The notes beneath the pieces are model-generated. The model saw nothing but the letters and a program-made list of their open reading frames with translations, had not been told where the DNA came from and made no database searches. A DNA stretch of 46,142 nucleotides from Escherichia phage ULINTec7: sequence record MZ997841.1. The stretch is one strand, 5' to 3'. A program made the translations under genes and the position numbers. Within the stretch, counting starts at the first letter, position 1, and each line of letters begins with the position of its first letter. This document shows positions 1 through 32,888 of the stretch, piece by piece.

Positions 1-634
1 CCATATGGGGTCGGTCGGCGGTTGACCTAGGAATTGGGCGGGGCGGGTCCGTCTTCAACCTGCTGCCGCAGGAAGCTCGACGGGTGGGCGAGGGCTTGCC
101 TTGTACTCGCTTAGTGGTACACAAGGAGAACGCCTAGGAAGCGCTAGGGCACGCCTTAGTATTGGACAAGGTGATTGCCTTAGTTCAACCGCTTAGGGCT
201 TACACGGGCCGTTTTAGGGCCATTCCTGAGCGTTTGACAGGGTGTGAGGGCGTGGGCTATCTGTTCGTTTCGTTCACTCCGCTTGCGCTACGTTCACTCG
301 CTCACGTGTACCTTAGGTTATTCCTTGATGGATAGCTTAGATTAGCCTTAGTGGATTACCTTAGTTAAAGCCTTAGTGCTTCACTTAGTATCAGCTTAGT
401 AGTGTACCTTAGTAAGTCTTAGTGTCTTCTCTTAGTGATTGCACATGCAAGCATGTAAGATGCCATTAGGTCGCGGTCGGTAGACCGCTAAAAGAAGGAG
501 AATAGTAATAAGATGCAGTAGGAGGAACACCAGAAGCCTAGCCAACCTAGCCTATCCTAGCTCTGTATCTATTGCTTTTCCTTAGTCTAACACGTTAGAC
601 AACCTATCTTATTCTTAGTGATGGTAACTTAGTG

Positions 635-1956: not shown

Positions 1957-2283
1957 ATGGAACGCAATGCTAACGCTTACTACAACCTTCTGGCTGCAAC
2001 TGTTGAAGCATTTAACGAGCGCATTCAGTACGGTGCAATTCGTGAAGGTGATGATTATTCTGATGCACTTCACGAGGTTGTAGATAGCAATGTTCCAGTT
2101 TATTACAGTGAAATCTTTACTGTGATGGCTGCTGATGGGATTGATATTGAATTTGAGGATGCTGGTTTGATTCCTGACACGAAGGATGTAACCAAGATTC
2201 TACAAGCTCGCATCTATGAGTCTCTTTATAATGATGTACCAAATGATAGTGATGTAGTTTGGTATGAAGACGAGGAAAAATAA
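1957..2283 (+). CDS. ocr: Ocr-like DNA-mimic anti-restriction protein (T7 gene 0.3 homolog)
   Basis: Translation [45 protein letters not shown] aligns closely by eye with recalled T7 Ocr ([45 protein letters not shown]). Highly acidic, 108 aa. Confidence 0.88.
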   Translation: [108 protein letters not shown]

Positions 2284-2284
2284 G

Positions 2285-2398
2285 ATGGAAAGGCAATATA
2301 ACTTCATCTTCTCAGACGGTGTAACCTTGAAATGCTCCTTACGATTTGCGCAGATTCGTGAGGAAGTGCTAGGTACTACATACAAGCTATTTAGTTGA
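2285..2398 (+). CDS. Hypothetical small protein (37 aa)
   Basis: Short ORF immediately after ocr with GAGGA upstream. Confidence 0.25.
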   Translation: MERQYNFIFSDGVTLKCSLRFAQIREEVLGTTYKLFS

Positions 2399-2412
2399 CA
2401 CTATAAGAGAAG
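2389..2412 (+). promoter_or_regulatory. Phage-RNAP promoter-like sequence (variant)
   Basis: ATTTAGTTGACACTATAAGAGA matches the window consensus at most positions and resembles the SP6 promoter ATTTAGGTGACACTATAGAAG. Confidence 0.45.
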
Positions 2413-2474
2413 GCTTAACAAGGCGTTGCTACGGTAGCGCCTGATTAAACTTTCACTTACTAGAGGTTAAGATT

Positions 2475-2600
2475 ATGAAACTATCGCCATCAACTAAAGG
2501 TCTTATTGCAGAACTTAAAGACTCTTTGAGGAATCCAATCATTTGGGCACTTATCTACATACCTTATGGTATCTACCTGTTTCACCTCATCACTGAGTAA
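2475..2600 (+). CDS. Hypothetical small membrane protein (41 aa)
   Basis: Hydrophobic stretch IWALIYIPYGIYLFHLI, SD-like AGAGG upstream. Confidence 0.3.
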   Translation: MKLSPSTKGLIAELKDSLRNPIIWALIYIPYGIYLFHLITE

Positions 2601-2633
2601 CTAGCCTATAGCCTGCCTGTGTGGGCTATGTGA

Positions 2634-2654
2634 TATTTACTTACACTATATAAG
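2634..2654 (+). promoter_or_regulatory. Weak phage-promoter-like sequence
   Basis: ATTTACTTACACTATATAAGG, a degenerate match to the consensus. Confidence 0.25.
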
Positions 2655-2663
2655 GTGACTATT

Positions 2664-3548
2664 ATGACTACTGAAAACACCCTTCTGTCTGTTCGTGAAG
2701 CTGCAACCGCTGAAATCAAGCAGCACTTAGACAATATCGGCACTTCTTACATCAAAGTTGGCGCTTGTCTGAATGAATTACGCGGTGATTTCGAAGGTCA
2801 AAAAGACTTTTTAGCTTATGTAGAATCAGAGTTCGGCATCAAGAAGGCACAATGCTACAAGCTGATGAGTGTAGCCCGTGTCTTTGAAGGAGACGAACGC
2901 TTTAAAGGTGTGGCTATGCGTGTAATGCTGGCGCTTGTTCCTTTCGCTGATGAAAATATAATCATGGAGAAGGCCGCAGAACTCGCCGCAGATGGCAAGC
3001 TGGACACTAACGCCGTAAACGCCCTGATTGATCCTAAGAAAGAGACAAAGGCCGAGACGGTACAATCTAAGGCTGAGACAGTAAAACCGCAGGAGAACGC
3101 TACTGAGGCCGCAGAATCACAGGAAATGCAAGCGCCGCAGGTAGTTCCACCCGCTAGCGAGCAGGATGCCGACGAATCAGCACCGTGGGATGAGGAAAGC
3201 AAGCCGGAAGCGCCAAAGGCAGCGCCGCTGGATAACACGGCTAATACCGAAAACGCCGCTATATCTGGCCTACTGGCACAAATTAAGGCACTGACTGAGC
3301 AATTACAGGCAGCTAATGACCGCATCGCCTCCTTAAGTAGTGCACGCGAAAGCAAGAAGGCAGCCGCGCCTATGCTGCCGCAATTCAAATCTTCCTGCTT
3401 CTATGCTCGCTTAGGTTTAAGCGCTGAGGAGGCAACGAAGAAAACAGCAGTTAACAAGGCACGCCGCGAACTGGTTAAGCTAGGCTACGGTGAAGGCCAT
3501 GAAGCATGGCCCTTAATCTCTGAGGCAGTAGAAGAGTTGACTAAGTAA
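2664..3548 (+). CDS. Early protein of unknown function, in the slot occupied by kinase 0.7 in T7
   Basis: 294 aa from the ATG at 2664 (TAAGG 8 nt upstream); the ORF-track start at 2655 is a GTG. No kinase motifs seen. Has a central Ala/Glu/Pro/Lys-rich low-complexity linker. Confidence 0.6.
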   Translation: MTTENTLLSVREAATAEIKQHLDNIGTSYIKVGACLNELRGDFEGQKDFLAYVESEFGIKKAQCYKLMSVARVFEGDERFKGVAMRVMLALVPFADENIIMEKAAELAADGKLDTNAVNALIDPKKETKAETVQSKAETVKPQENATEAAESQEMQAPQVVPPASEQDADESAPWDEESKPEAPKAAPLDNTANTENAAISGLLAQIKALTEQLQAANDRIASLSSARESKKAAAPMLPQFKSSCFYARLGLSAEEATKKTAVNKARRELVKLGYGEGHEAWPLISEAVEELTK

Positions 3549-3611
3549 CCTTATCGGTGGCATCTTCTTAGGTGTCACCTATTAAGGTTTCTTTCACTAG
3601 GAGTAAACAAG

Positions 3612-6239
3612 ATGCAAGACCTACACGCTATTCAACTTCAACTTGAAGAAGAAATGTTTAACGGCGGTATCCGTCGCTTTGAAGCGGACCAACAACGCCA
3701 GATTGCATCCGGTAATGAATCAGACACGGCATGGAATCGCCGCTTATTGTCCGAGTTAATCGCGCCAATGGCTGAAGGTATTCAGGCATACAAGGAAGAG
3801 TATGAAGGTAAAAGAGGCCGTGCACCACGTGCATTAGCTTTCATTAACTGCGTAGGGAATGAAGTAGCAGCATATATCACCATGAAAATCGTTATGGATA
3901 TGCTGAATACAGACGTTACCTTACAAGCCATCGCTATGAATGTAGCCGACCGAATCGAGGACCAAGTACGTTTTAGCAAGCTGGAAGGTCACGCAGCTAA
4001 GTACTTTGAGAAAGTGAAGAAGTCGCTTAAGGCTAGCAAGACTAAATCTTATCGTCATGCGCACAACGTAGCGGTAGTAGCTGAGAAGTCTGTTGCTGAC
4101 CGTGACGCGGATTTCTCCCGTTGGGAGGCATGGCCTAAAGACACCTTGTTGCAAATAGGCATGACCTTGCTAGAAATCTTGGAGAATAGCGTATTCTTCA
4201 ATGGTCAACCTGTCTTCCTTCGTACCTTGCGCACTAACGGCGGAAAGCATGGTGTTTACTATTTACAGACCAGTGAACATGTTGGCGAGTGGATAACTGC
4301 ATTTAAGGAACATGTAGCGCAGCTCAGCCCTGCCTATGCACCTTGCGTTATACCTCCCCGCCCTTGGGTATCACCTTTTAACGGCGGTTTCCACACTGAG
4401 AAAGTAGCAAGCCGTATTCGTCTGGTAAAAGGAAACCGCGAACACGTCCGCAAGCTGACCAAAAAGCAAATGCCAGCGGTTTACAAGGCTGTTAACGCTT
4501 TGCAGGCGACTAAGTGGCAGGTTAATAAAGAAGTTTTGCAGGTAGTAGAGGACGTTATCCGTCTCGACCTTGGTTATGGTGTACCTTCCTTTAAACCACT
4601 CATCGACCGCGAAAACAAACCAGCTAATCCGGTGCCGCTAGAATTTCAGCACCTGCGAGGCCGTGAACTGAAAGAGATGCTAACGCCGGAACAGTGGCAA
4701 TCCTTCATTAACTGGAAAGGTGAATGCACCAAGCTGTACACCGCAGAAACTAAGCGTGGCAGCAAGTCGGCGGCTACGGTCCGCATGGTTGGTCAGGCCC
4801 GTAAATATAGCCAGTTCGACGCAATCTACTTCGTGTATGCACTGGACAGCCGCAGCCGTGTATATGCGCAATCTAGCACGCTCTCACCGCAATCAAACGA
4901 CTTAGGCAAGGCACTCCTACGGTTTACCGAAGGGCAGCGCCTTGATAGCTCTGAGGCGCTTAAATGGTTTTTGGTGAACGGGGCTAATAACTGGGGTTGG
5001 GATAAGAAAACTTTCGACGTGCGCACCGCTAACGTGTTAGATGGTGAATTCCAAGACATGTGCCGCGACATTGCAGCGGATCCTCTGACCTTCACTCAAT
5101 GGGTAAATGCCGACTCCCCTTACGGCTTCCTTGCTTGGTGCTTTGAATATGCGCGTTATCTGGATGCACTGGATGAAGGCACGCAAGACCAATTCATGAC
5201 GCACCTCCCAGTCCATCAAGATGGTAGTTGTTCTGGTATCCAGCACTACAGTGCTATGCTACGCGATGCAGTAGGTGCGAAAGCGGTAAACCTTAAGCCC
5301 TCTGACTCCCCTCAAGATATTTATGGTGCCGTTGCGCAGGTAGTAATTCAGAAGAATTATGCATACATGAATGCAGAGGATGCGGAAACCTTCACTTCTG
5401 GCAGCGTGACTTTAACAGGTGCAGAACTTCGTAGCATGGCTAGTGCGTGGGATATGATAGGAATCACTCGCGGCCTGACCAAAAAGCCTGTAATGACACT
5501 ACCTTATGGCAGCACACGTCTAACCTGCCGTGAATCAGTGATTGATTATATCGTTGATTTGGAAGAAAAAGAGGCCCAACGGGCTATTGCGGAAGGGCGT
5601 ACCGCCAATCCTGTACATCCTTTTGATAATGACCGCAAAGACAGCCTGACACCTAGCGCAGCTTATAACTATATGACAGCTTTAATCTGGCCTTCTATTT
5701 CGGAAGTGGTTAAAGCTCCTATAGTGGCAATGAAAATGATTCGTCAGCTTGCACGTTTCGCAGCTAAAAGAAACGAAGGCTTAGAATATCCCTTACCAAC
5801 TGGCTTCATCTTGCAACAAAAGATAATGGCTACCGATATGCTCCGCGTATCCACTTGCTTGATGGGTGAAATCAAGATGAGTCTCCAGATTGAAACAGAT
5901 GTAGTTGATGAAACGGCAATGATGGGTGCGGCTGCTCCTAACTTCGTCCATGGTCACGATGCTAGCCACCTGATTCTGACTGTATGTGACCTAGTGGATA
6001 AAGGTATTACATCCATTGCAGTCATCCATGATTCTTTCGGTACTCATGCAGGACGTACCGCAGACCTGCGGGATAGCTTAAGGGAAGAAATGGTTAAGAT
6101 GTATCAAAACCATAATGCCCTGCAAAACCTGCTAGATGTGCACGAAGAGCGTTGGTTAGTAGACACCGGAATCCAAGTACCAGAGCAAGGAGAGTTTGAC
6201 CTTAACGAAATCTTAGTTTCAGACTATTGTTTCGCATAA
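3612..6239 (+). CDS. Single-subunit DNA-dependent RNA polymerase (T7/SP6 type)
   Basis: 875 aa with [16 protein letters not shown] and [13 protein letters not shown] motifs matching the T7 RNAP catalytic region. Confidence 0.97.
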
Positions 6240-6313
6240 TATTAATAGGCCATTCCTTAGGGAGTGGCCTTTTTCTTTACCTACTACCTGTAACATTTCA
6301 TTAACATAAAAGT

Positions 6314-6329
6314 GTCTCACATGTGAGAC
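6314..6329. promoter_or_regulatory. Conserved palindrome GTCTCACATGTGAGAC, copy 1
   Basis: Perfect 16-bp palindrome immediately 5' of the promoter at 6331. Confidence 0.6.
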
Positions 6330-6330
6330 T

Positions 6331-6352
6331 TATTTACCGGACACTATAGGAT
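6331..6352 (+). promoter_or_regulatory. Phage-RNAP promoter
   Basis: TATTTACCGGACACTATAGGATAG matches the consensus. Confidence 0.7.
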
Positions 6353-6500
6353 AGCCGTCGGAGACGGGAAAGAAAGGGAAGATAAAGGATATAAAGGAAG
6401 TAATAGGTATTAAAGGTTATATAGGTTATCTAGGAATACCTAGGAATACCTATTACCTTCTTCCTTCCTCTTATTACCACTTAGAGGAAGGGCAGACCTA
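6353..6500. promoter_or_regulatory. AT-rich dyad-symmetric region, candidate primary replication origin
   Basis: Purine-rich arm at 6366-6411 and complementary pyrimidine-rich arm at 6445-6478, with direct repeat TAGGAATACC x2 at 6431-6450. Lies between two promoter copies just downstream of the RNAP gene, the position of the T7 primary origin. Confidence 0.45.
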
Positions 6501-6503
6501 GGT

Positions 6504-6520
6504 TGTCTCACATGTGAGAC
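6504..6520. promoter_or_regulatory. Conserved palindrome TGTCTCACATGTGAGAC, copy 2
   Basis: Same palindrome as at 6314, followed by a promoter-like sequence. Confidence 0.6.
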
Positions 6521-6522
6521 TT

Positions 6523-6547
6523 CGTATTTACCGGACAGTATAGATAA
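6523..6547 (+). promoter_or_regulatory. Phage-promoter-like sequence (degenerate: ACAGTATAGATAAG)
   Basis: GTATTTACCGGACAGTATAGATAAG differs from the consensus in the conserved CACTATAGAAG core. Confidence 0.35.
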
Positions 6548-6721: not shown

Positions 6722-7875
6722 ATGGCTATTATTAATAACATCCCATGTCCTCAATGTCAGAAGAATGGACACGATAAATCAGGCAACCACCTTATGATAT
6801 TCGAGGATGGTGCTGGGTACTGTAACCGTGGTCACTTCCATGATAATGGCAGACCTTACTACCATAAGCCTGAAGGGGGCATCGAGATAACCGAGTTGCC
6901 TATTACTGGCAATATCAAATATACACCTTCCCAGTTTAAAGAGATGGAGAAGGAAGGGAAGATTAGCGACCCTAAGCTACGCGCCATCGCACTTGGTGGT
7001 ATGCGTATGAAAGACCGTTGGGAGGTTATGAATGAGCAAGAAAGGGCAGACCAAGAAACAGAGTGGAAACTTGATGTTGAATGGTTCCTCACGCTTAAGC
7101 GTAAGAATCTTGTTTCCCGACACATTCGCGGCGACATTTGCGCATTGTATGATGTACGGGTCGGACACGATGAAGAAGGTAGAGTCTCACGGCATTACTA
7201 TCCACGCTTCGAAAAATGTGAGCTAGTAGGCGCTAAGTGTCGCACATTACCTAAAGACTTTAAGTTTGGTCATTTAGGTAAACTATTTGGTATGCAAGAT
7301 CTTTTCGGTATGAATACTTTGTCTCACGTGTTAGACAAGGGAAGACGAAAGGATTGCTTGCTTATTGTCGGCGGCGAACTGGATGCACTAGCAGCACAGC
7401 AAATGCTCCTTGATTCTGCCAAGGGTACTAAGTGGGAAGGCCAGCCTTACCATGTATGGTCTGTCAATAAAGGTGAGTCTTGCCTTGAAGAGATAGTACA
7501 GAACCGTGAACACATCGCCCAATTTAAGAAGATTATATGGGGTTTTGATGGAGATGAGGTAGGGCAGAAGCAGAATCAGCAAGCGGCTCGCCTGTTTCCT
7601 GGCAAATCCTATATCCTTGAGTACCCTTCTGGTTGCAAAGATGCCAACAAGGCATTGATGGCTGGCAAGGCTAAAGAGTTTGTTGATGCATGGTTTAATG
7701 CCAAGTCATCTGATGAAGTCTTTGGTAGCCAGATTAAATCTATCGCATCTCAAAGGGATAAGCTCAAGGCTGCACGTCCAGAGCAAGGACTATCATGGCC
7801 TTGGCCTAAGCTGAACAAGGTAACGCTAGGTATTCGTAAGAACCAACTTATCATTGTAGGCGCAGGCTCTGGCGT
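6722..7875 (+). CDS. DNA primase-helicase, exon 1 (zinc ribbon, TOPRIM, start of helicase Walker A)
   Basis: CPQC...C..GHFH zinc ribbon and LLIVGGELDALAAQQ TOPRIM resemble T7 gp4. The ORF continues to ...LIIVGAGSGV and then runs into a stop at 7895-7897 within inserted sequence; the proposed exon ends at 7875. Confidence 0.7.
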
Positions 7876-8662
7876 TAACATTAGCGCCGCCATGTAGTAA
7901 TACATGGGCAATAATCGTGTGAACTCAGGGGAAGACTAGAACAGTTAATCCTGAGCCAAGCTAGGCACACCTCAAATTCAAAGGAGGTGTTATGCAATTT
8001 AAAGAAGTACCAGATCACAGTAATTATATTTGTTATGAGAATGGCACGGTTGTTAATCGTAAGACTGGAAAGGTCTTGAAAGAAGATACAACTAACCGAG
8101 GTTATAAGCGGATTACAGTAAGCAAGGGCAACAAGGTAACACGTTGGAGTGTGCACCGTTTAGTTGCTTTACTGTTTATCCCTAACCCTCATAATTATGA
8201 AACTGTTAATCACATATCGGGAGATAAGACGGATAACTCTGTTAGTAATCTTGAGTGGATGAGCCAAGAACAGAACCAAGCCCATGCTAAATATACAGGA
8301 CTGTGTCCTAAAGGTGAGGCTGTTGGCACTAATAAGTTCAAAGAGGCAACTATTCATCAAGTGTGCAAGCTAATAGAGAAAGGTTTATCTCGCGGTGAAA
8401 TTATGAAAGCAACGAGCATCTCTAAAGCAACCTTTGATGACATTCGTAGAAGGAAGACTTGGAAGCACGTATCTTGTTCATATAAATGGTGACAATCTGG
8501 TGTGCCTAGAAGGTGCAACGACTATCCCGAAAGGGAGTACAGCCAAGCGGCTGGAAGCGCACGACACCCATCGTGGGTGATGATATAGTCTGGTCTATAT
8601 GGGGACATATAGCAGTTCATAAGAGAACGGGCGTGGCTTAGCGAACCACGTCGAACATAACG
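7876..8662 (+). mobile_element. Putative group I intron carrying an HNH homing endonuclease ORF, inserted in the helicase Walker A codons
   Basis: The 5' exon ends in U (7875) and the insert ends in G (8662). Exon 3' end GGCGU can pair with intron GCGCC at 7884-7888 (P1 with a U.G wobble). The downstream frame opens right after a stop at 8658-8660 with GKTEF and no start codon. Joining gives the contiguous P-loop GAGSGVGKTEF. Confidence 0.6.
7992..8492 (+). CDS. HNH homing endonuclease (intron-encoded)
   Basis: 166 aa with HRLVALLFIPNP...VNHISGDKTDNSVSNLEW, a typical HNH/AP2-type motif; AGGAGG SD upstream; a paralog of the ORF at 10976. Confidence 0.85.
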   Translation: MQFKEVPDHSNYICYENGTVVNRKTGKVLKEDTTNRGYKRITVSKGNKVTRWSVHRLVALLFIPNPHNYETVNHISGDKTDNSVSNLEWMSQEQNQAHAKYTGLCPKGEAVGTNKFKEATIHQVCKLIEKGLSRGEIMKATSISKATFDDIRRRKTWKHVSCSYKW

Positions 8663-9497
8663 AGGTAAGACTGAGTTCCTTCGTGAAGTAGTTAAGCACC
8701 TCATTGAAGAACACGGTGAATCTGTAGGCATCATTTCTACAGAAGACCCGATGGTCAAGGTGTCCCGTGCTTTTATCGGCAAGTGGATTGATAAGCGTAT
8801 TGAGTTACCGCCAACCAACGACCCGAAAGAAGATGGATACCGTGAGGTGTTCGACTACACCGAGGAAGAAGCTAACGCCGCCATTGATTATGTAGCTGAT
8901 ACAGGTAAGCTGTTTGTGGCTGACCTAGAGGGTGACTATTCGATGGAAAAGGTAGAGCAAACTTGCCTAGAGTTTGAGGCTATGGGCATTTCTAATATCA
9001 TCATTGATAACTTAACGGGGATTAAATTAGATGAGCGTGCTTTTGGTGGGAAGGTTGGTGCACTTGATGAATGCGTCAAGCGGATTGGTACTATCAAAGA
9101 CCGACACCCGGTTACTATATTCCTTGTATCACACCTTACACGTCCTCCGGCAAACCGTACCCAACATGAAGAAGGTGGCGAAGTTATCCTTTCTGACTTC
9201 CGAGGCTCAGGCGCTATCGGATTCTGGGCATCTTACGCCTTGGGGATTGAGCGTAATACAAGAGCTGAAACGCTTGACGAAAGGACTACCACGTACATCT
9301 CATGTGTCAAAGACCGCGACCAAGGTATCTGGACTGGAACCAAGGTCATGCTTAAGGGTGACATTCAAACCGGACGTTTAATGGAACCACAAGCCCGTAC
9401 TAAGTCATTTGATACAGGTGAAGCAAGGCAACAAGAAGTGCCGGATTTACCGGACACTATAGAAGAGACAACCTTTGACGATGAACAGGAGTTTTAA
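8663..9497 (+). CDS. DNA primase-helicase, exon 2 (helicase RecA-like domain)
   Basis: Frame reads GKTEFLREVV... from 8663, through the ORF-track ATG at 8751, to DDEQEF. FLVSHLTRP and SDFRGSGAIGF...LGIERN resemble T7 gp4 helicase motifs. Exon 1 plus exon 2 is 1989 nt, a 662-aa product. Confidence 0.7.
9445..9467 (+). promoter_or_regulatory. Phage-RNAP promoter inside the helicase 3' coding region
   Basis: ATTTACCGGACACTATAGAAGAG matches the consensus. Confidence 0.65.
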
Positions 9498-9671: not shown

Positions 9672-9695
9672 GCTTGTCTCACATGTGAGACAGGC
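9672..9695. promoter_or_regulatory. Conserved palindromic hairpin GCTTGTCTCACATGTGAGACAGGC, copy 3
   Basis: Extended 11-bp stem around the 16-bp core, located at a gene end. Confidence 0.6.
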
Positions 9696-10854: not shown

Positions 10855-10878
10855 GGTTGTCTCACACGTGAGACAGCC
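10855..10878. promoter_or_regulatory. Conserved palindromic hairpin, copy 4 (loop variant CACACGTG)
   Basis: GGTTGTCTCACACGTGAGACAGCC: the stem is conserved while the central dinucleotide differs. Confidence 0.55.
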
Positions 10879-10908: not shown

Positions 10909-11016
10909 ATGAATAACTACGACTCTGATTGGGATTTCTACGATTCAATGCAATCTAAACCAGAAAGGAGGGAGGATGAGTTCGAAACAGATCAAATGTA
11001 CGAGGATTTTTACTAA
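10909..11016 (+). CDS. Hypothetical small acidic protein (35 aa)
   Basis: Short ORF that overlaps the start of the HNH gene; weak call. Confidence 0.2.
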   Translation: MNNYDSDWDFYDSMQSKPERREDEFETDQMYEDFY

Positions 11017-11455
11017 CTACATCCTCTACTCTGATGGTCGAGTTCTTAACGAGAAAACCGGACAATATCTAAGAGGTTACTTAGATAAAGATGGGTATCA
11101 TATTATGAATATTAAAGGGAAACACCTTAAAGTTCATCGATTAGTTGCTATCCATTTCATACCTAACCCTAATAATTTACCTGAAGTTAACCATAAAGAT
11201 CATGACCGTCTAAACAATAATGATTGGAATCTAGAGTGGTGTACTCATCAAGATAACAACAAGCATAGCTTACATTTAGTAATAGCTTCTTGTGCTAAAC
11301 GCTATGACTTTATATCACCACAAGGTGTCCATGTAGAAGTCTATAACTTACGTGAGTTTTGTAGGAATAACAACCTACAGCAATCTCATATGGTTAAGGT
11401 GGCTAAAGGTAAAGTAAGACATCATAAAGGTTGGACTAATTATGCTAGATGTTGA
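10976..11455 (+). CDS. HNH homing endonuclease (free-standing)
   Basis: 159 aa with HRLVAIHFIPNP...VNHKDHDRLNNNDWNLEW; AGGAGGGAGG SD; paralog of the intron ORF at 7992. Confidence 0.85.
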   Translation: MSSKQIKCTRIFTNYILYSDGRVLNEKTGQYLRGYLDKDGYHIMNIKGKHLKVHRLVAIHFIPNPNNLPEVNHKDHDRLNNNDWNLEWCTHQDNNKHSLHLVIASCAKRYDFISPQGVHVEVYNLREFCRNNNLQQSHMVKVAKGKVRHHKGWTNYARC

Positions 11456-16495: not shown

Positions 16496-16511
16496 GTCTC
16501 ACATGTGAGAC
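16496..16511. promoter_or_regulatory. Conserved palindrome GTCTCACATGTGAGAC, copy 5
   Basis: Lies 15 nt upstream of the promoter at 16526. Confidence 0.6.
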
Positions 16512-16525
16512 AAATCGGTGTCCGG

Positions 16526-16549
16526 TATTTACTGGACACTATAGAAGAG
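16526..16549 (+). promoter_or_regulatory. Phage-RNAP promoter
   Basis: TATTTACTGGACACTATAGAAGAG. Confidence 0.8.
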
Positions 16550-29902: not shown

Positions 29903-32850
29903 TGGCAATTGAGCGACAAGCAGTACAAGGTCTGCCACAAGTGCAGGCCACTTCTCCTAATGTCATGACCTTTGCACCTCAGCAAGCTGGAGGTGTGGAG
30001 GCTGGCGTAGCTTCTACCTCCGGTAGTCGATTTATCGAAGACCTTATTCGAGCAGCCAGTAGTGTAGCTGATGTAACCACTGGTATCCTTAATCAAAAGA
30101 TTGAGGAAGATAAGGTTGTTCAAATGGAACGGGCATATAATGGACTGATGCCTTCTGAGGATGCAACTCGTGGTGGCGCTCGTGCTAACATGCTTGTCAA
30201 AGCTCAACTGCTAGCTAATGATGAAGCAGCACGAATGAAAGACATGGCTACTCGTTTCCAAGGAACAGATGACGAGTGGACACAACTCATGGTTGACTCT
30301 CGTAATGAGATGCAGAATAAGCTGTTCCAGCAATACCCTGAGTTGCAAGGTGACAAAGATACTATGCGTATGGTCACTAATGTCTTCCAAGAACAGCAGC
30401 CTCAAATTTGGGCTACACGAACCCAGCATAAACTTGACCGTGAACAAGCAGACCGTGAGGACACCTTTGACGGGCGAGTGGCTTCTACTTGGGATTCTAG
30501 TATTGACCCAGAGGCTTCTGGTTATGCCCTACAGGAGCGAATCCGCGAGGGGTTTACTCAAGGGCTATTACCTGAGCAGATGCATAAGAAGCTGGTAGAG
30601 CGAGCTATTTCACTTGCTCAGGGTGGTGATATTAGCATGGCTGAAGCCTTGAAGTACGTGAAGGACGACAAGGGTGTTTCTGTCTATGCTAAGAATCCGC
30701 AGCTTATCACAGCTATCACTAGTGGTAATGCAGTTTGGGCTAGGAATAATGTTGCTGATGTGACTCGCATGTCTTTTGAAGTCAAAGAATCCTATCTTGC
30801 AGGTGACTTGACGGATGAAGAATTACTGGAGCGAGCACAGCACATTAATAGCCTGACAGGAAACTCTGTCTTCTCTAATCCAGAACTAGAAGCACTGATG
30901 CGTCAACGAGCTAAGCAGAATGCAGAGCTAGGTGCAATGCAGGATATGCGACGTGAACTTTACTCTGACCGCATGACTGGCTTCCAAGGTAAGACAGATA
31001 AAGAGAAGAAAGCCTACATTGATGTTATCAAACAGGATAGCCAACTATATGCAGACCAGCAAATCAAGCAGCGCGGATTGGACCCTTACAGCCAAGAGGC
31101 TGAAGCTATCCGTGGTGCAGTAGAAGTGCAGCGCCTGCAATTCATGAACTCCAAAGGCTTAGTGGATGATACCTTTGAGTCTCGTATCAAAGCCATGGAG
31201 TCTATGCTATCACCTGAGCACTTCGCTAAAGGCGAACCACAGGAGTTAATGACTATTCGTCAGTTGTGGGAACAGTTACCAGAAGAAAGCCGAGGTGTCT
31301 TTGGTGATACGGTGAATGGCTATATGGATAACTACAACACTGCATTACAAATGGGGGAGACGCCTTTGCAGGCTGCAAGGTTTGCCCGTGAAGCACAGCA
31401 GAAATTCTCTCGTACTGAGAAAGAAACCAAGAAGTTCAACTCAGCTATTGGAGATGCACTGGATGAGGTATCGGGTGCTGGCTGGTTTGATGGTAAAACC
31501 GAAGTGTCTGACTTAGGTAAAGCTATTGCAGAAGAAGAGTTACGAGCTAAGGCCAATATGCTGTGGTCTAGCGGTATGCGTAACATGGATTCCATCAAGA
31601 AGGCTTTAATTACTTGGGGCAATAAACGCTACACTCAATCAGAGGATGCAAAGACTTCCGGTGGTTATTTCATTAAAGGTGATTACACTTCTGCATCTGA
31701 CATGCTTATGTCTGTTGGGAAAGGTGTAAACCCTACCGATGTACCTCTGGCTCTTGGTAGGTATGTAGAAACACAAATGCCAGAATTGAAGAAGGAACTT
31801 CAAGAGTGGGAAACTAAGGATGATGTATACATTGATTACAATGAACAGAAAGGTACTTTCGTGATTCGTGCTGGTGCAGCAGGTCGCCCTCTTTCTGGAG
31901 TAATCCCTGTCACCTCTTTAGATACCACTTCACTGCTAGACTCTGCCTATCAGAAGAAAGTAGAAGAACGAGATAAAGGTGAATATGTTCACCCATATCG
32001 TACAGATATCGGTGCACAAGAACCCATGCCAGCTAAGCCAACTGCCAAGGATATTGGTAAATTTGGACTAGCTAATTTCCTCATGTCTTCTGCCTTTGCT
32101 TCTGGTGAGAACCTACCTTCTAACTTCGAGATTAACTATAGAGGCAATATGCAACAATTCTATGACAAGCTAGCTATGGATGAGAATGGCGATAAGCTGG
32201 GCTTCAACAAAGCCACAGGAACCTTCACACCGTACAAAGATGCACATGGCGAGTCGGTAGGCTATGGTCACTTCCTTACGGAAGAAGAAAAGAGAAATGG
32301 GTACATTAAGATTGGCGACGAACTAGTCCCGTATCGCGGCTCTATGTCTCAGCTCACTGAGAGTAAGGCCCGTGCTCTTATGGAACAAGATGCCAAGAAG
32401 CATGTACCTCCAACTCGTGATTGGAAAATCCCATTCGACCAGATGCATCCGGCACAGCAGCGCGGTTTAATGGATTTAACCTATAACTTAGGTAAAGGTG
32501 GAATCCAGAATGCACCGCGTGCTCTTGCTGCATTCAAGGCAGGTAAGCTTACAGAAGGCTTTATCGAAATGTTGGGTACTGCATCAAGTGAAGGTAAGCG
32601 TATTCCTGGTTTACTGAAGCGACGCGCTGAGGCTTACAATATGGCAGCTGCCGGTGGTGTACCTAAGATTACCGAAGTAGAGACTCGTGAAGATGGGTCT
32701 ATGTGGGTTAAGTTCGGTGGACCTATGCCAGCAGGTTCTGTATCTGCATGGACTCATAAACGTATTGGCGCTGATGGCTGGTATCAGGTTTATGAGGCTG
32801 CACCTACCAAGTTAGCTAAAGGCTCTAAGGTGGGTAAAGTTAAGTTGTAG
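29902..32850 (+). CDS. Internal virion protein with C-terminal lysozyme-like domain
   Basis: 982 aa; C-terminal YKDAHGESVGYGHFLT...LTYNLGKGGI resembles the T4 lysozyme segment YKDTEGYYTIGIGHLLT...MVFQMGETGV. Confidence 0.65.
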   Translation: MAIERQAVQGLPQVQATSPNVMTFAPQQAGGVEAGVASTSGSRFIEDLIRAASSVADVTTGILNQKIEEDKVVQMERAYNGLMPSEDATRGGARANMLVKAQLLANDEAARMKDMATRFQGTDDEWTQLMVDSRNEMQNKLFQQYPELQGDKDTMRMVTNVFQEQQPQIWATRTQHKLDREQADREDTFDGRVASTWDSSIDPEASGYALQERIREGFTQGLLPEQMHKKLVERAISLAQGGDISMAEALKYVKDDKGVSVYAKNPQLITAITSGNAVWARNNVADVTRMSFEVKESYLAGDLTDEELLERAQHINSLTGNSVFSNPELEALMRQRAKQNAELGAMQDMRRELYSDRMTGFQGKTDKEKKAYIDVIKQDSQLYADQQIKQRGLDPYSQEAEAIRGAVEVQRLQFMNSKGLVDDTFESRIKAMESMLSPEHFAKGEPQELMTIRQLWEQLPEESRGVFGDTVNGYMDNYNTALQMGETPLQAARFAREAQQKFSRTEKETKKFNSAIGDALDEVSGAGWFDGKTEVSDLGKAIAEEELRAKANMLWSSGMRNMDSIKKALITWGNKRYTQSEDAKTSGGYFIKGDYTSASDMLMSVGKGVNPTDVPLALGRYVETQMPELKKELQEWETKDDVYIDYNEQKGTFVIRAGAAGRPLSGVIPVTSLDTTSLLDSAYQKKVEERDKGEYVHPYRTDIGAQEPMPAKPTAKDIGKFGLANFLMSSAFASGENLPSNFEINYRGNMQQFYDKLAMDENGDKLGFNKATGTFTPYKDAHGESVGYGHFLTEEEKRNGYIKIGDELVPYRGSMSQLTESKARALMEQDAKKHVPPTRDWKIPFDQMHPAQQRGLMDLTYNLGKGGIQNAPRALAAFKAGKLTEGFIEMLGTASSEGKRIPGLLKRRAEAYNMAAAGGVPKITEVETREDGSMWVKFGGPMPAGSVSAWTHKRIGADGWYQVYEAAPTKLAKGSKVGKVKL

Positions 32851-32862
32851 TACCTAACTCAA

Positions 32863-32888
32863 GGCTTGTCTCACATGTGAGACAGGTC
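32863..32888. promoter_or_regulatory. Conserved palindromic hairpin, copy 6
   Basis: GGCTTGTCTCACATGTGAGACAGGTC, between the internal virion protein genes. Confidence 0.6.

Follow-up and report, generated by a model that had tools for sequence, protein, structure and literature searches.

gp6 of SP6/K1-5-Type Phages: A ParB/KorB-Type Fold Joined to a J-like Domain, and a Dispersed Palindrome That Covaries with Its Predicted Recognition Helix

Introduction

Proteins of the ParB/KorB type have cognate sites of about 13–16 bp on their own replicon, and two such systems, KorB of plasmid RK2 (1r71, 8qa8) and chromosomal ParB/Spo0J with its parS sites (1vz0, 6s6h), are the closest described points of comparison for gp6, a 294-amino-acid (aa) protein of Escherichia phage ULINTec7. 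The gp6 open reading frame (ORF) lies at 2664..3548 (+) of sequence record MZ997841.1, whose full 46,142 nucleotides are referred to below as the window. Judged from the sequence, a palindrome dispersed through the window would fit the description of a cognate site. We consider it reasonably likely that gp6 is a sequence-specific binder of its own phage genome, KorB-like in its logic and equipped with a J-like effector domain.

The comparison with the known site readers has clear limits. gp6 has neither the CTPase domain nor the C-terminal dimerization domain of KorB and no detectable sequence similarity to it; it has instead a coiled coil and a J-like domain, and the promoters next to its candidate sites serve a single-subunit phage RNA polymerase (RNAP). 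Relative to chromosomal ParB/Spo0J, gp6 again lacks the CTPase, and its setting is a lytic phage and not a partition system. No ParA partner was noticed in the window, where no systematic search for a ParA-like ATPase was made, and none is annotated in the related genomes listed. With the CTPase domain and any sequence-level match missing and no ParA noticed, gp6 is better described as working like a KorB/ParB-type site reader than as a strict member of the family.

The C-terminal domain invites comparison with J-domain proteins, whose fold and KAYR-type helix II it shares and from which it differs in having no HPD motif and no helix IV. The one characterized phage J-protein, Rki of phage RB43, is described as a functional J-domain protein interacting with DnaK (PMC3486835), unlike the HPD-less domain of gp6. 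Tim16/Pam16 (2guz_B) is also an HPD-less J-like protein, but it is a mitochondrial import component paired with the true J-protein Tim14, and no such partner of gp6 is known.

A Conserved Gene Linked to the Polymerase Gene

The gp6 ORF starts with ATG, is preceded by a ribosome-binding site (AAGGTG, 7 nt 5′ of the start), and comprises 294 codons and a stop codon. The single-subunit RNAP gene (875 aa, 3612..6239, +) begins 63 nt past its end. An earlier note on this DNA, made from the letters and predicted ORFs, had placed an uncharacterized early protein of this length next to the polymerase gene, and its coordinates proved exact. gp6 is the ortholog of K1E gp6 and SP6 gene 6 and matches PHROG 4571 (function unknown) with E = 4e-132. 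The ULINTec7 genome belongs to Vectrevirus, is K1E/K1-5-like, and falls within the SP6 supergroup; positions 2400–3800 share 95–97% identity with many such phages. Full-length homologs were found in 213 phage records with identity falling to about 31%, all in genomes of about 42–48 kb, and 135 representatives remain at 50% clustering. Their hosts include Escherichia, Klebsiella, Salmonella, Proteus, Erwinia, Pectobacterium, Vibrio, Aeromonas, Pseudomonas, and Ralstonia. In all inspected genomes (eight annotated, from seven host genera) the gp6 homolog stands one or two genes 5′ of the RNAP gene. This conservation at the sequence level confirms that gp6 is a real, conserved gene.

The same note had assigned gp6 to the position of the T7 gene 0.7 kinase while finding no kinase motifs, and both statements hold. 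The comparison with T7 puts gp6 in the same slot, just upstream of RNAP and downstream of ocr. Position is all that gp6 shares with gp0.7, a protein kinase involved in host shut-off: the fold differs, the sequences are unrelated (BLASTP gave E = 4.8 over 15 residues only), and no kinase family was found in Pfam at E ≤ 10. A tblastn search of T7 gp0.7 against the whole window also found nothing, and on these results a kinase or gp0.7 relationship was rejected. Searched alone, gp6 had no significant or useful match in Pfam, PDB sequences, PADLOC, or NCBIfam, and among known defense and anti-defense models no PADLOC family matched it at E ≤ 1. Clear homology to a characterized housekeeping phage protein, which the note had named in advance as grounds for dropping its view, was likewise not found. 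Plasmid homologs of the N-terminal domain were searched for and none were found, so the family appears to be phage-specific. Literature searches on the palindrome sequences, DUF3102, and SP6/K1-5 gp6 returned nothing relevant, and the family is uncharacterized in the searchable literature; the 2004 SP6 and K1-5 genome papers may already mention the repeats. GenBank names for gp6 homologs vary, including 'andolysin'/'endolysin', 'late transcription factor VLTF-4', and 'periplasmatic protein', and are probably misleading artifacts of the low-complexity linker. Vibrio phage Vc1 is placed in Drexlerviridae by the taxonomy line of its record, yet its genome is that of an RNAP-encoding podophage.

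Domain Architecture of gp6

An AlphaFold2 model built on a 101-sequence alignment (mean predicted local distance difference test score, pLDDT, 82.9) divides gp6 into four parts. Residues 1–122 (2664..3029, +) form an N-terminal helical domain, DUF3102-like and of the ParB/KorB/SopB DNA-binding type, that is folded from about residue 10 (pLDDT >90 for 10–122). Residues 123–195 (3030..3248, +) are a disordered acidic tether rich in Ala, Glu, Pro, Lys, and Thr (pLDDT ~50). Residues 196–231 (3249..3356, +) form a 36-aa amphipathic helix (pLDDT 93–94) that is a probable coiled-coil oligomerization element. Residues 236–294 (3369..3545, +) form the J-like domain (pLDDT ~97), which opens with a conserved PxLPQF motif. 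The three-part layout of the earlier note was thus broadly right, except that the linker is about 73 residues long, not about 100, the remainder being the 196–231 helix. The structure prediction that the note had proposed found both end domains folded, the N-terminal one as a ParB/KorB/SopB type and the C-terminal one as J-like.

The model of the N-terminal domain contains a predicted helix-turn-helix (2799..2885, +; helix 46–57, turn 58–60, recognition helix 61–74, KAQCYKLMSVARVF; secondary structure from AlphaFold2), with Lys66 (codon 2859–2861, +) in the recognition helix. A Foldseek search with gp6 had given an earlier hint of KorB and VirB. In fold comparisons the domain scored 5.6 against Spo0J (1vz0), 5.2 against KorB (1r71, 2.6 Å over 88 aa; the same score for 8qa8), 4.9 against ParB (6s6h), 4.4 against P1 ParB (1zx4), and 4.3 against both SopB (3mky) and VirB (3vwb); these scores are modest, and Raf1 alpha-domains score equally high, for which we have no explanation. 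On this predicted structure, the domain has the central helix-turn-helix fold of the ParB/KorB superfamily. The DUF3102 and DnaJ signals came to light only when 101 family representatives were scanned; single-protein searches did not show them. Since 32 of the 101 match DUF3102 (PF11300, a Pfam family of no assigned function) at E ≤ 0.01, the best at 1.5e-7, the N-terminal domain appears by sequence to be a divergent relative; ULINTec7 gp6 itself has no match. gp6 lacks the ParB/Srx CTPase N-terminal domain, as its helix-turn-helix domain begins at about residue 10 and no ParBc-type Pfam match was found for the query or among the listed family matches. Many distant homologs carry an N-terminal extension of 70–150 residues, made of helical segments and not of ParB-N. 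The extension of the P0129–P0229 homologs has recurring 'TLK(D/A)AK' and 'RTK(A/K)AF' motifs, and the SP6/K1E clade has no extension.

The C-terminal domain, by eye, resembles a J-domain without HPD, and three lines of comparison point the same way. Pfam DnaJ matches 10 of the 101 family members (best E = 1e-5), 35 of the 37 PDB matches of a profile of this domain alone are J-domain proteins (best E = 1.8e-4), and hhalign gave 94% probability against seven canonical J-domains. These results assign the domain the J-domain fold (PF00226, helices I–III hairpin). None of the 101 sequences has the HPD motif there, so the domain is, from its sequence, J-like and not that of a functional J-domain protein. 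In ULINTec7 gp6, and throughout the clades of SP6/K1E, Vibrio, and Pseudomonas, the loop at the HPD position reads GYGEGH; other family members have HYTPETN, HYNPDTN, IYTAxxN, or IWNKDSN. In the ULINTec7 clade KARR replaces KAYR, with loss of the conserved Tyr of helix II. Because the HPD and, in this clade, the helix II Tyr are lost, canonical stimulation of the Hsp70/DnaK ATPase would not be expected.

Both end domains are conserved across the family, and the linker between them is acidic and variable in length. The tether has a net charge of −10 in ULINTec7 gp6 and a median of −6 in the family, in which its length ranges from 17 to 92 residues. Helix 196–231 has profile matches to coiled-coil chains, and I204, L207, L211, A214, I218, and L221 can be read from the sequence in 3–4 spacing. 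On the model, this coiled coil probably makes gp6 a dimer. An antisense ORF over the linker (2855–3388, −; 177 aa, Ala/Ser-rich) was judged to be a low-complexity mirror and no gene.

A Dispersed Palindrome in gp6-Bearing Genomes

A domain of the ParB/KorB type leads one to expect a palindromic site. A terminator scan had already turned up GTCTCACATGTGAGAC, a perfect 16-bp palindrome, twice just 3′ of the RNAP gene. The pattern GTCTCAC-NN-GTGAGAC occurs eight times in the window versus 0.26 expected, as five exact copies of GTCTCACATGTGAGAC and three more with 1–3 partly compensatory changes. Seven of the eight are intergenic, and three lie directly before phage promoters: GTCTCACATGTGAGAC at 6314..6329 is 2 bp upstream of the promoter at 6332, GTCTCACATGTGAGAC at 6505..6520 is 5 bp upstream of that at 6526, and the copy at 16496..16511 is 15 bp upstream of that at 16527. 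A strong early promoter of the sigma-70-like type (635–663) has the variant GTCTAACACGTTAGAC (585..600) 35 bp upstream of its −35 hexamer. Two copies occupy intergenic gaps (9676..9691 and, as GTCTCACACGTGAGAC, 10859..10874) and another falls between two large late genes (32868..32883); all three are inside longer hairpins of the mRNA strand that need G·U pairs. The degenerate copy GTCTCACGTGTTAGAC at 7321..7336 is within the primase gene.

Nearly every gp6-bearing phage examined has its own version of the palindrome. The eight complete gp6-bearing genomes (SP6, PM93, phiEa100, Nerthus, Vc1, ECBP5, Reminis, and the ULINTec7 window) each contain a related GT(C/T)-type palindrome in 5–10 copies, while shuffled genomes reach a maximum of 1–2. 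SP6 has nine copies of GTC(C/T)AAC-NN-GTTGGAC (site sequence GTCCAACGTGTTGGAC), PM93 six of GTCCAAC-N3-GTTGGAC, phiEa100 nine of GTCTCAC-NN-GTGAGAC, Nerthus ten of GTCTCAC-N3-GTGAGAC, Vibrio phage Vc1 ten of GTTTCAC-N3-GTGAAAC, ECBP5 6–8 of GTCTAGT-NN-ACTAGAC, and Reminis 5–7 of GTCTC(T/C)T-AT-A(G/A)GAGAC. In T7 and K1F neither gp6 nor such dispersed palindromes were found. Across the eight genomes 45 of 65 palindromes are fully noncoding versus 6.2 expected (p ~5e-31), and their positions are syntenic, at about 0.01, 0.14, 0.14, 0.16, 0.21, 0.24, 0.35, and 0.71 of genome length. This synteny across genera led us to reject mobile repeats as an explanation. The half-site GT(C/T)TCAC is similar to that of the chromosomal parS consensus, TGTTNCACGTGAAACA (PMC7022226), and the phage sites add 2–3 central bases.

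Phages of the Trp63 clade (named for the recognition-helix residue discussed below) carry, beside the GTC-type sites, a second dispersed palindrome family, GTACTAG-N4-CTAGTAC or TGTACTAGTACA. It is located at 5995, 6061, 14590, and 43196 in ECBP5 (L011), at 30493, 39429, 39624, and 39708 in Reminis (L007), and at 5830 and 6023 in locus L049.

Covariation of the Half-Site with the Recognition Helix

About 50 loci were compared in all, including 41 further viral-contig loci across which the half-site partitions perfectly with the recognition-helix motif. Helices of the form ..AQxYKLM.. (Lys66) go with GTCTCAC, ..AQCY(N/H)LM.. with GTCCAAC or GTCTAAC, ..AQASKLM.. with GTTTCAC, ..AWAYRLM.. with GTCTAGT, ..AWAFKLM.. 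with GTCTC(C/T)T, and ..AYVYRLM.. with GTCTACA. The correspondence can be resolved to single residues. Half-site position 5 is C where residue 66 is Lys and A where it is Asn, His, or Arg. At residue 63, Gln pairs with A6-C7, Trp with (G/Y)6-T7, and Tyr with C6-A7, and Ser at residue 65 pairs with T at position 3 (Vc1 only). Within the predicted recognition helix, residues 63, 65, and 66 take positions 3, 5, and 6, on the faces that usually contact bases.

Ancestry was controlled for by comparing six TCAC with six CAAC phages over 1103 ungapped columns (246 of gp6 and 857 of RNAP). Residue 66 is the only column of the 1103 in which all TCAC phages share a residue absent from every CAAC phage. 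RNAP identity places Vectrevirus (Lys/TCAC) within the Asn/CAAC clade, at 85–86% to SP6 and locus L024, 60% to phiEa100, and 43–46% to the Pseudomonas and Vibrio phages. Since residue 66 uniquely separates the two groups and Vectrevirus is nested in this way, the sequences indicate that residue 66 and half-site base 5 switched together at least twice. It was also predicted beforehand that an unrelated clade with Asn66 should have A at half-site position 5. The prediction held in three environmental phage loci, L055, L056, and L057 (helix KKAQAYNLVKIY; the query was the distant Asn66 representative P0144, to which they are 27–28% identical), which contain GTCTAAC-N3-GTTAGAC in 9, 4, and 6 copies, respectively.

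Proposed Function and Alternative Explanations

On these observations gp6 has the look of a regulator of phage genes, and not of a kinase substitute or an anti-defense factor. In the mechanism that we propose, the N-terminal ParB/KorB-type helix-turn-helix would recognize GTCTCAC-NN-GTGAGAC on phage DNA, with gp6 probably dimerized through the 196–231 coiled coil. The sites it would occupy, about eight and mostly intergenic, include those at the left end by the early promoters, two beside the first phage promoters after the RNAP gene, and others at several gene-cluster boundaries. The acidic disordered tether would then present the J-like domain as a protein-docking effector. Most likely, gp6 would act in a KorB-like way, controlling transcription units globally or insulating them, either by modulating promoters or by blocking read-through. 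We favor transcription control because the sites border phage promoters on their upstream side and flank early promoters, because the gp6 gene stays linked to the RNAP gene, and because homologs of T7 gp0.7, gp2, gp3.5, and gp5.5 were not detected in the window (by tblastn for gp0.7).

Several points weigh against this proposal. The N-terminal domain is mildly acidic, with a net charge of −4, and the median isoelectric point in the family is 5.3. Three distant homolog loci (L049, L050, and L053) have no dispersed palindrome in 14–21 kb. Shared ancestry can still inflate the covariation, and another conserved phage protein could be the true reader of the palindromes. Finally, 17 of the 65 palindromes gain 3–8 flanking pairs, but only if G·U pairing on the mRNA strand is permitted; the corresponding figures are 5 for the other strand and 1 for Watson–Crick pairs alone, and 48 have no extension.

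The main alternative is an origin role, in which gp6 would bind the palindromes to mark or activate replication initiation zones and would use its J-like domain to recruit replication proteins or remodel them. It owes this rank to the two site–promoter pairs past the RNAP gene, at 6314 and 6505, which mimic the T7 primary origin, laid out as phi1.1A/1.1B with an AT-rich region. Between them the stretch 6350–6500 is AT- and purine-rich with a tandem CTAGGAATAC repeat, so that an AT-rich repeat region has on either side a site with a phage promoter after it. GTC, the recognition triplet of T7-type primases, starts every palindrome on both strands. The combination of a DNA-binding domain with a J-fold domain in gp6 also has a viral parallel in SV40 large T antigen, which joins a J-domain to an origin-binding domain, and plasmid initiators are activated by DnaJ/DnaK. 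The sites are nevertheless genome-wide, with the late region and the extreme left end included, and with HPD missing, canonical DnaK activation would not be expected. We regard this role as unlikely.

If the palindromes were instead RNA elements, such as terminators, attenuators, or 3′-stabilizing hairpins, gp6 would bind hairpin RNA or be unrelated to them, and the covariation would reflect lineage history. The 17 G·U-dependent extensions speak for this explanation, as the extended sites stand at syntenic gene 3′ ends (9676, 10859, and 32868 in ULINTec7; SP6 and PM93 have counterparts). This dependence on G·U pairs suggests that a subset of the palindromes also forms RNA hairpins, possibly attenuators or 3′ stabilizers. 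As a general explanation for all the palindromes, hairpins and terminators were rejected. The other 48 sites show no extension, and a 7-bp arm with a 2–3-nt spacer makes a poor hairpin. Moreover, the sequence is conserved beyond pairing among Escherichia, Erwinia, and Pseudomonas phages, residue 66 co-switches with base 5 in independent clades, the advance prediction included, and ParB-type helix-turn-helix domains bind duplex DNA. A purely RNA-based account therefore strikes us as quite unlikely.

The earlier note had suggested a host-takeover or anti-defense factor, and this suggestion did not find support. Here the N-terminal domain would be a protein-binding module, and the J-like domain would target a host factor, for instance sequestering DnaK or DnaJ or acting on host RNAP or a defense protein. 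gp6 does lie in the early region beside an Ocr homolog, it is acidic overall, and the phage has no gp0.7 or gp2 homologs. A J-fold also suggests contact with the Hsp70 system, and the phage J-protein Rki is known to act on DnaK (PMC3486835). A host target for the J-like domain is possible. On the other hand, gp6 is conserved and syntenic in the eight annotated genomes, unlike accessory anti-defense genes, which are usually less stable in synteny. It has no PADLOC match (Ocr is a separate gene), and HPD is absent from all family members. A host effector would leave the genome-wide palindromes and their covariation with the helix-turn-helix unexplained, and its ParB/KorB-type fold and the covarying candidate sites on the phage genome fit such a role poorly. 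We judge it improbable. That gp6 merely clusters or compacts phage genomes as a ParB-like centromere or condensation protein acting at parS-like sites, with no direct role in transcription, is highly improbable: the ParB-like fold, the multiple parS-like 16–17-bp palindromes, and a coiled coil that could bridge DNA-bound dimers would suit it, but gp6 has no ParB N-terminal CTPase/spreading domain and no noticed ParA partner, partition is of no obvious use to a strictly lytic 45-kb podophage, and sites so close to promoters suggest a link to transcription.

Genomic Neighborhood

A phage-RNAP-type promoter, ATTTAGTTGACACTATA at 2389..2405 (+), lies 5′ of gp5, gp6, and the RNAP gene and is an exact match to the pattern ATTTANNNNACACTATA, which has 17 matches in the window versus 1.9 expected. 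The ATTTACTTACACTATAT stretch at 2636 was rejected as a phage promoter, its spacer being one base short; the true match is that at 2389. The label 'early' given to gp6 in the earlier note is plausible by position and incomplete in that this phage-type promoter is also 5′ of the gene. From its placement, expression of gp6 probably continues once the phage RNAP appears.

The remaining features of the region are side observations. An acidic 108-aa homolog of Ocr, the DNA-mimic anti-restriction protein, is encoded at 1957–2283 (+) in the relative position of T7 gene 0.3 (Pfam PF08684, E = 5.7e-31). Between the 2389 promoter and gp6 lies the gp5 ORF (2475–2600, +), whose 41-aa product has a hydrophobic C-terminal half (IIWALIYIPYGIYLFHLI) and no Pfam match, and a hairpin with a 10-bp stem (2607–2630, +) separates gp5 from gp6. 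The RNAP stop codon is followed at once by a strong terminator-like hairpin with a T-run after it (6247–6270, +), a likely early terminator. Further downstream the primase-helicase is apparently split into a Toprim part (6722–7897) and a DnaB_C helicase part (8751–9497, +), separated by a free-standing HNH_3 plus HTH_7 endonuclease ORF (7992–8492). A second HNH_3 ORF is found at 10976–11455.

Implications

SP6/K1-5-type phages are the source of a standard laboratory RNA polymerase and serve therapeutically against K1 E. coli, Klebsiella, and Salmonella. The T7 regulators gp0.7, gp2, and lysozyme play no part in their control of transcription, and gp6 may bear on how it works instead. A bolder possibility, which we offer tentatively and with some doubt, is that gp6 and the palindromes constitute an unrecognized cis/trans regulatory system in which gp6, as a ParB-derived helix-turn-helix protein, reads palindromic operators specific to each phage, and its HPD-less J-like domain acts there directly on phage RNAP or on host RNAP or DnaK. 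If this is true, T7-family RNA polymerases would have in gp6 their first dedicated transcription factor or insulator bound to DNA, and the system would replace the T7 gp0.7/gp2/gp3.5 control circuit with a recognition code simple enough for re-engineering.

The family names 'endolysin', 'VLTF-4', and 'periplasmatic protein' are corrected by these findings. If gp6 binds the palindromes, a conserved 'hypothetical protein' would become the reader of a genome-wide operator set with a testable code, in which residue 66 goes with C (Lys) or A (Asn) and residue 63 (Gln, Trp, or Tyr) with the inner dinucleotide. It would also mean that a lytic phage has put a ParB-type DNA-binding domain to new use while dispensing with the CTPase module and that an HPD-less J-fold gains a candidate function. 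Such a code might, in turn, supply orthogonal operator/repressor pairs for circuits built on SP6-type RNAP.

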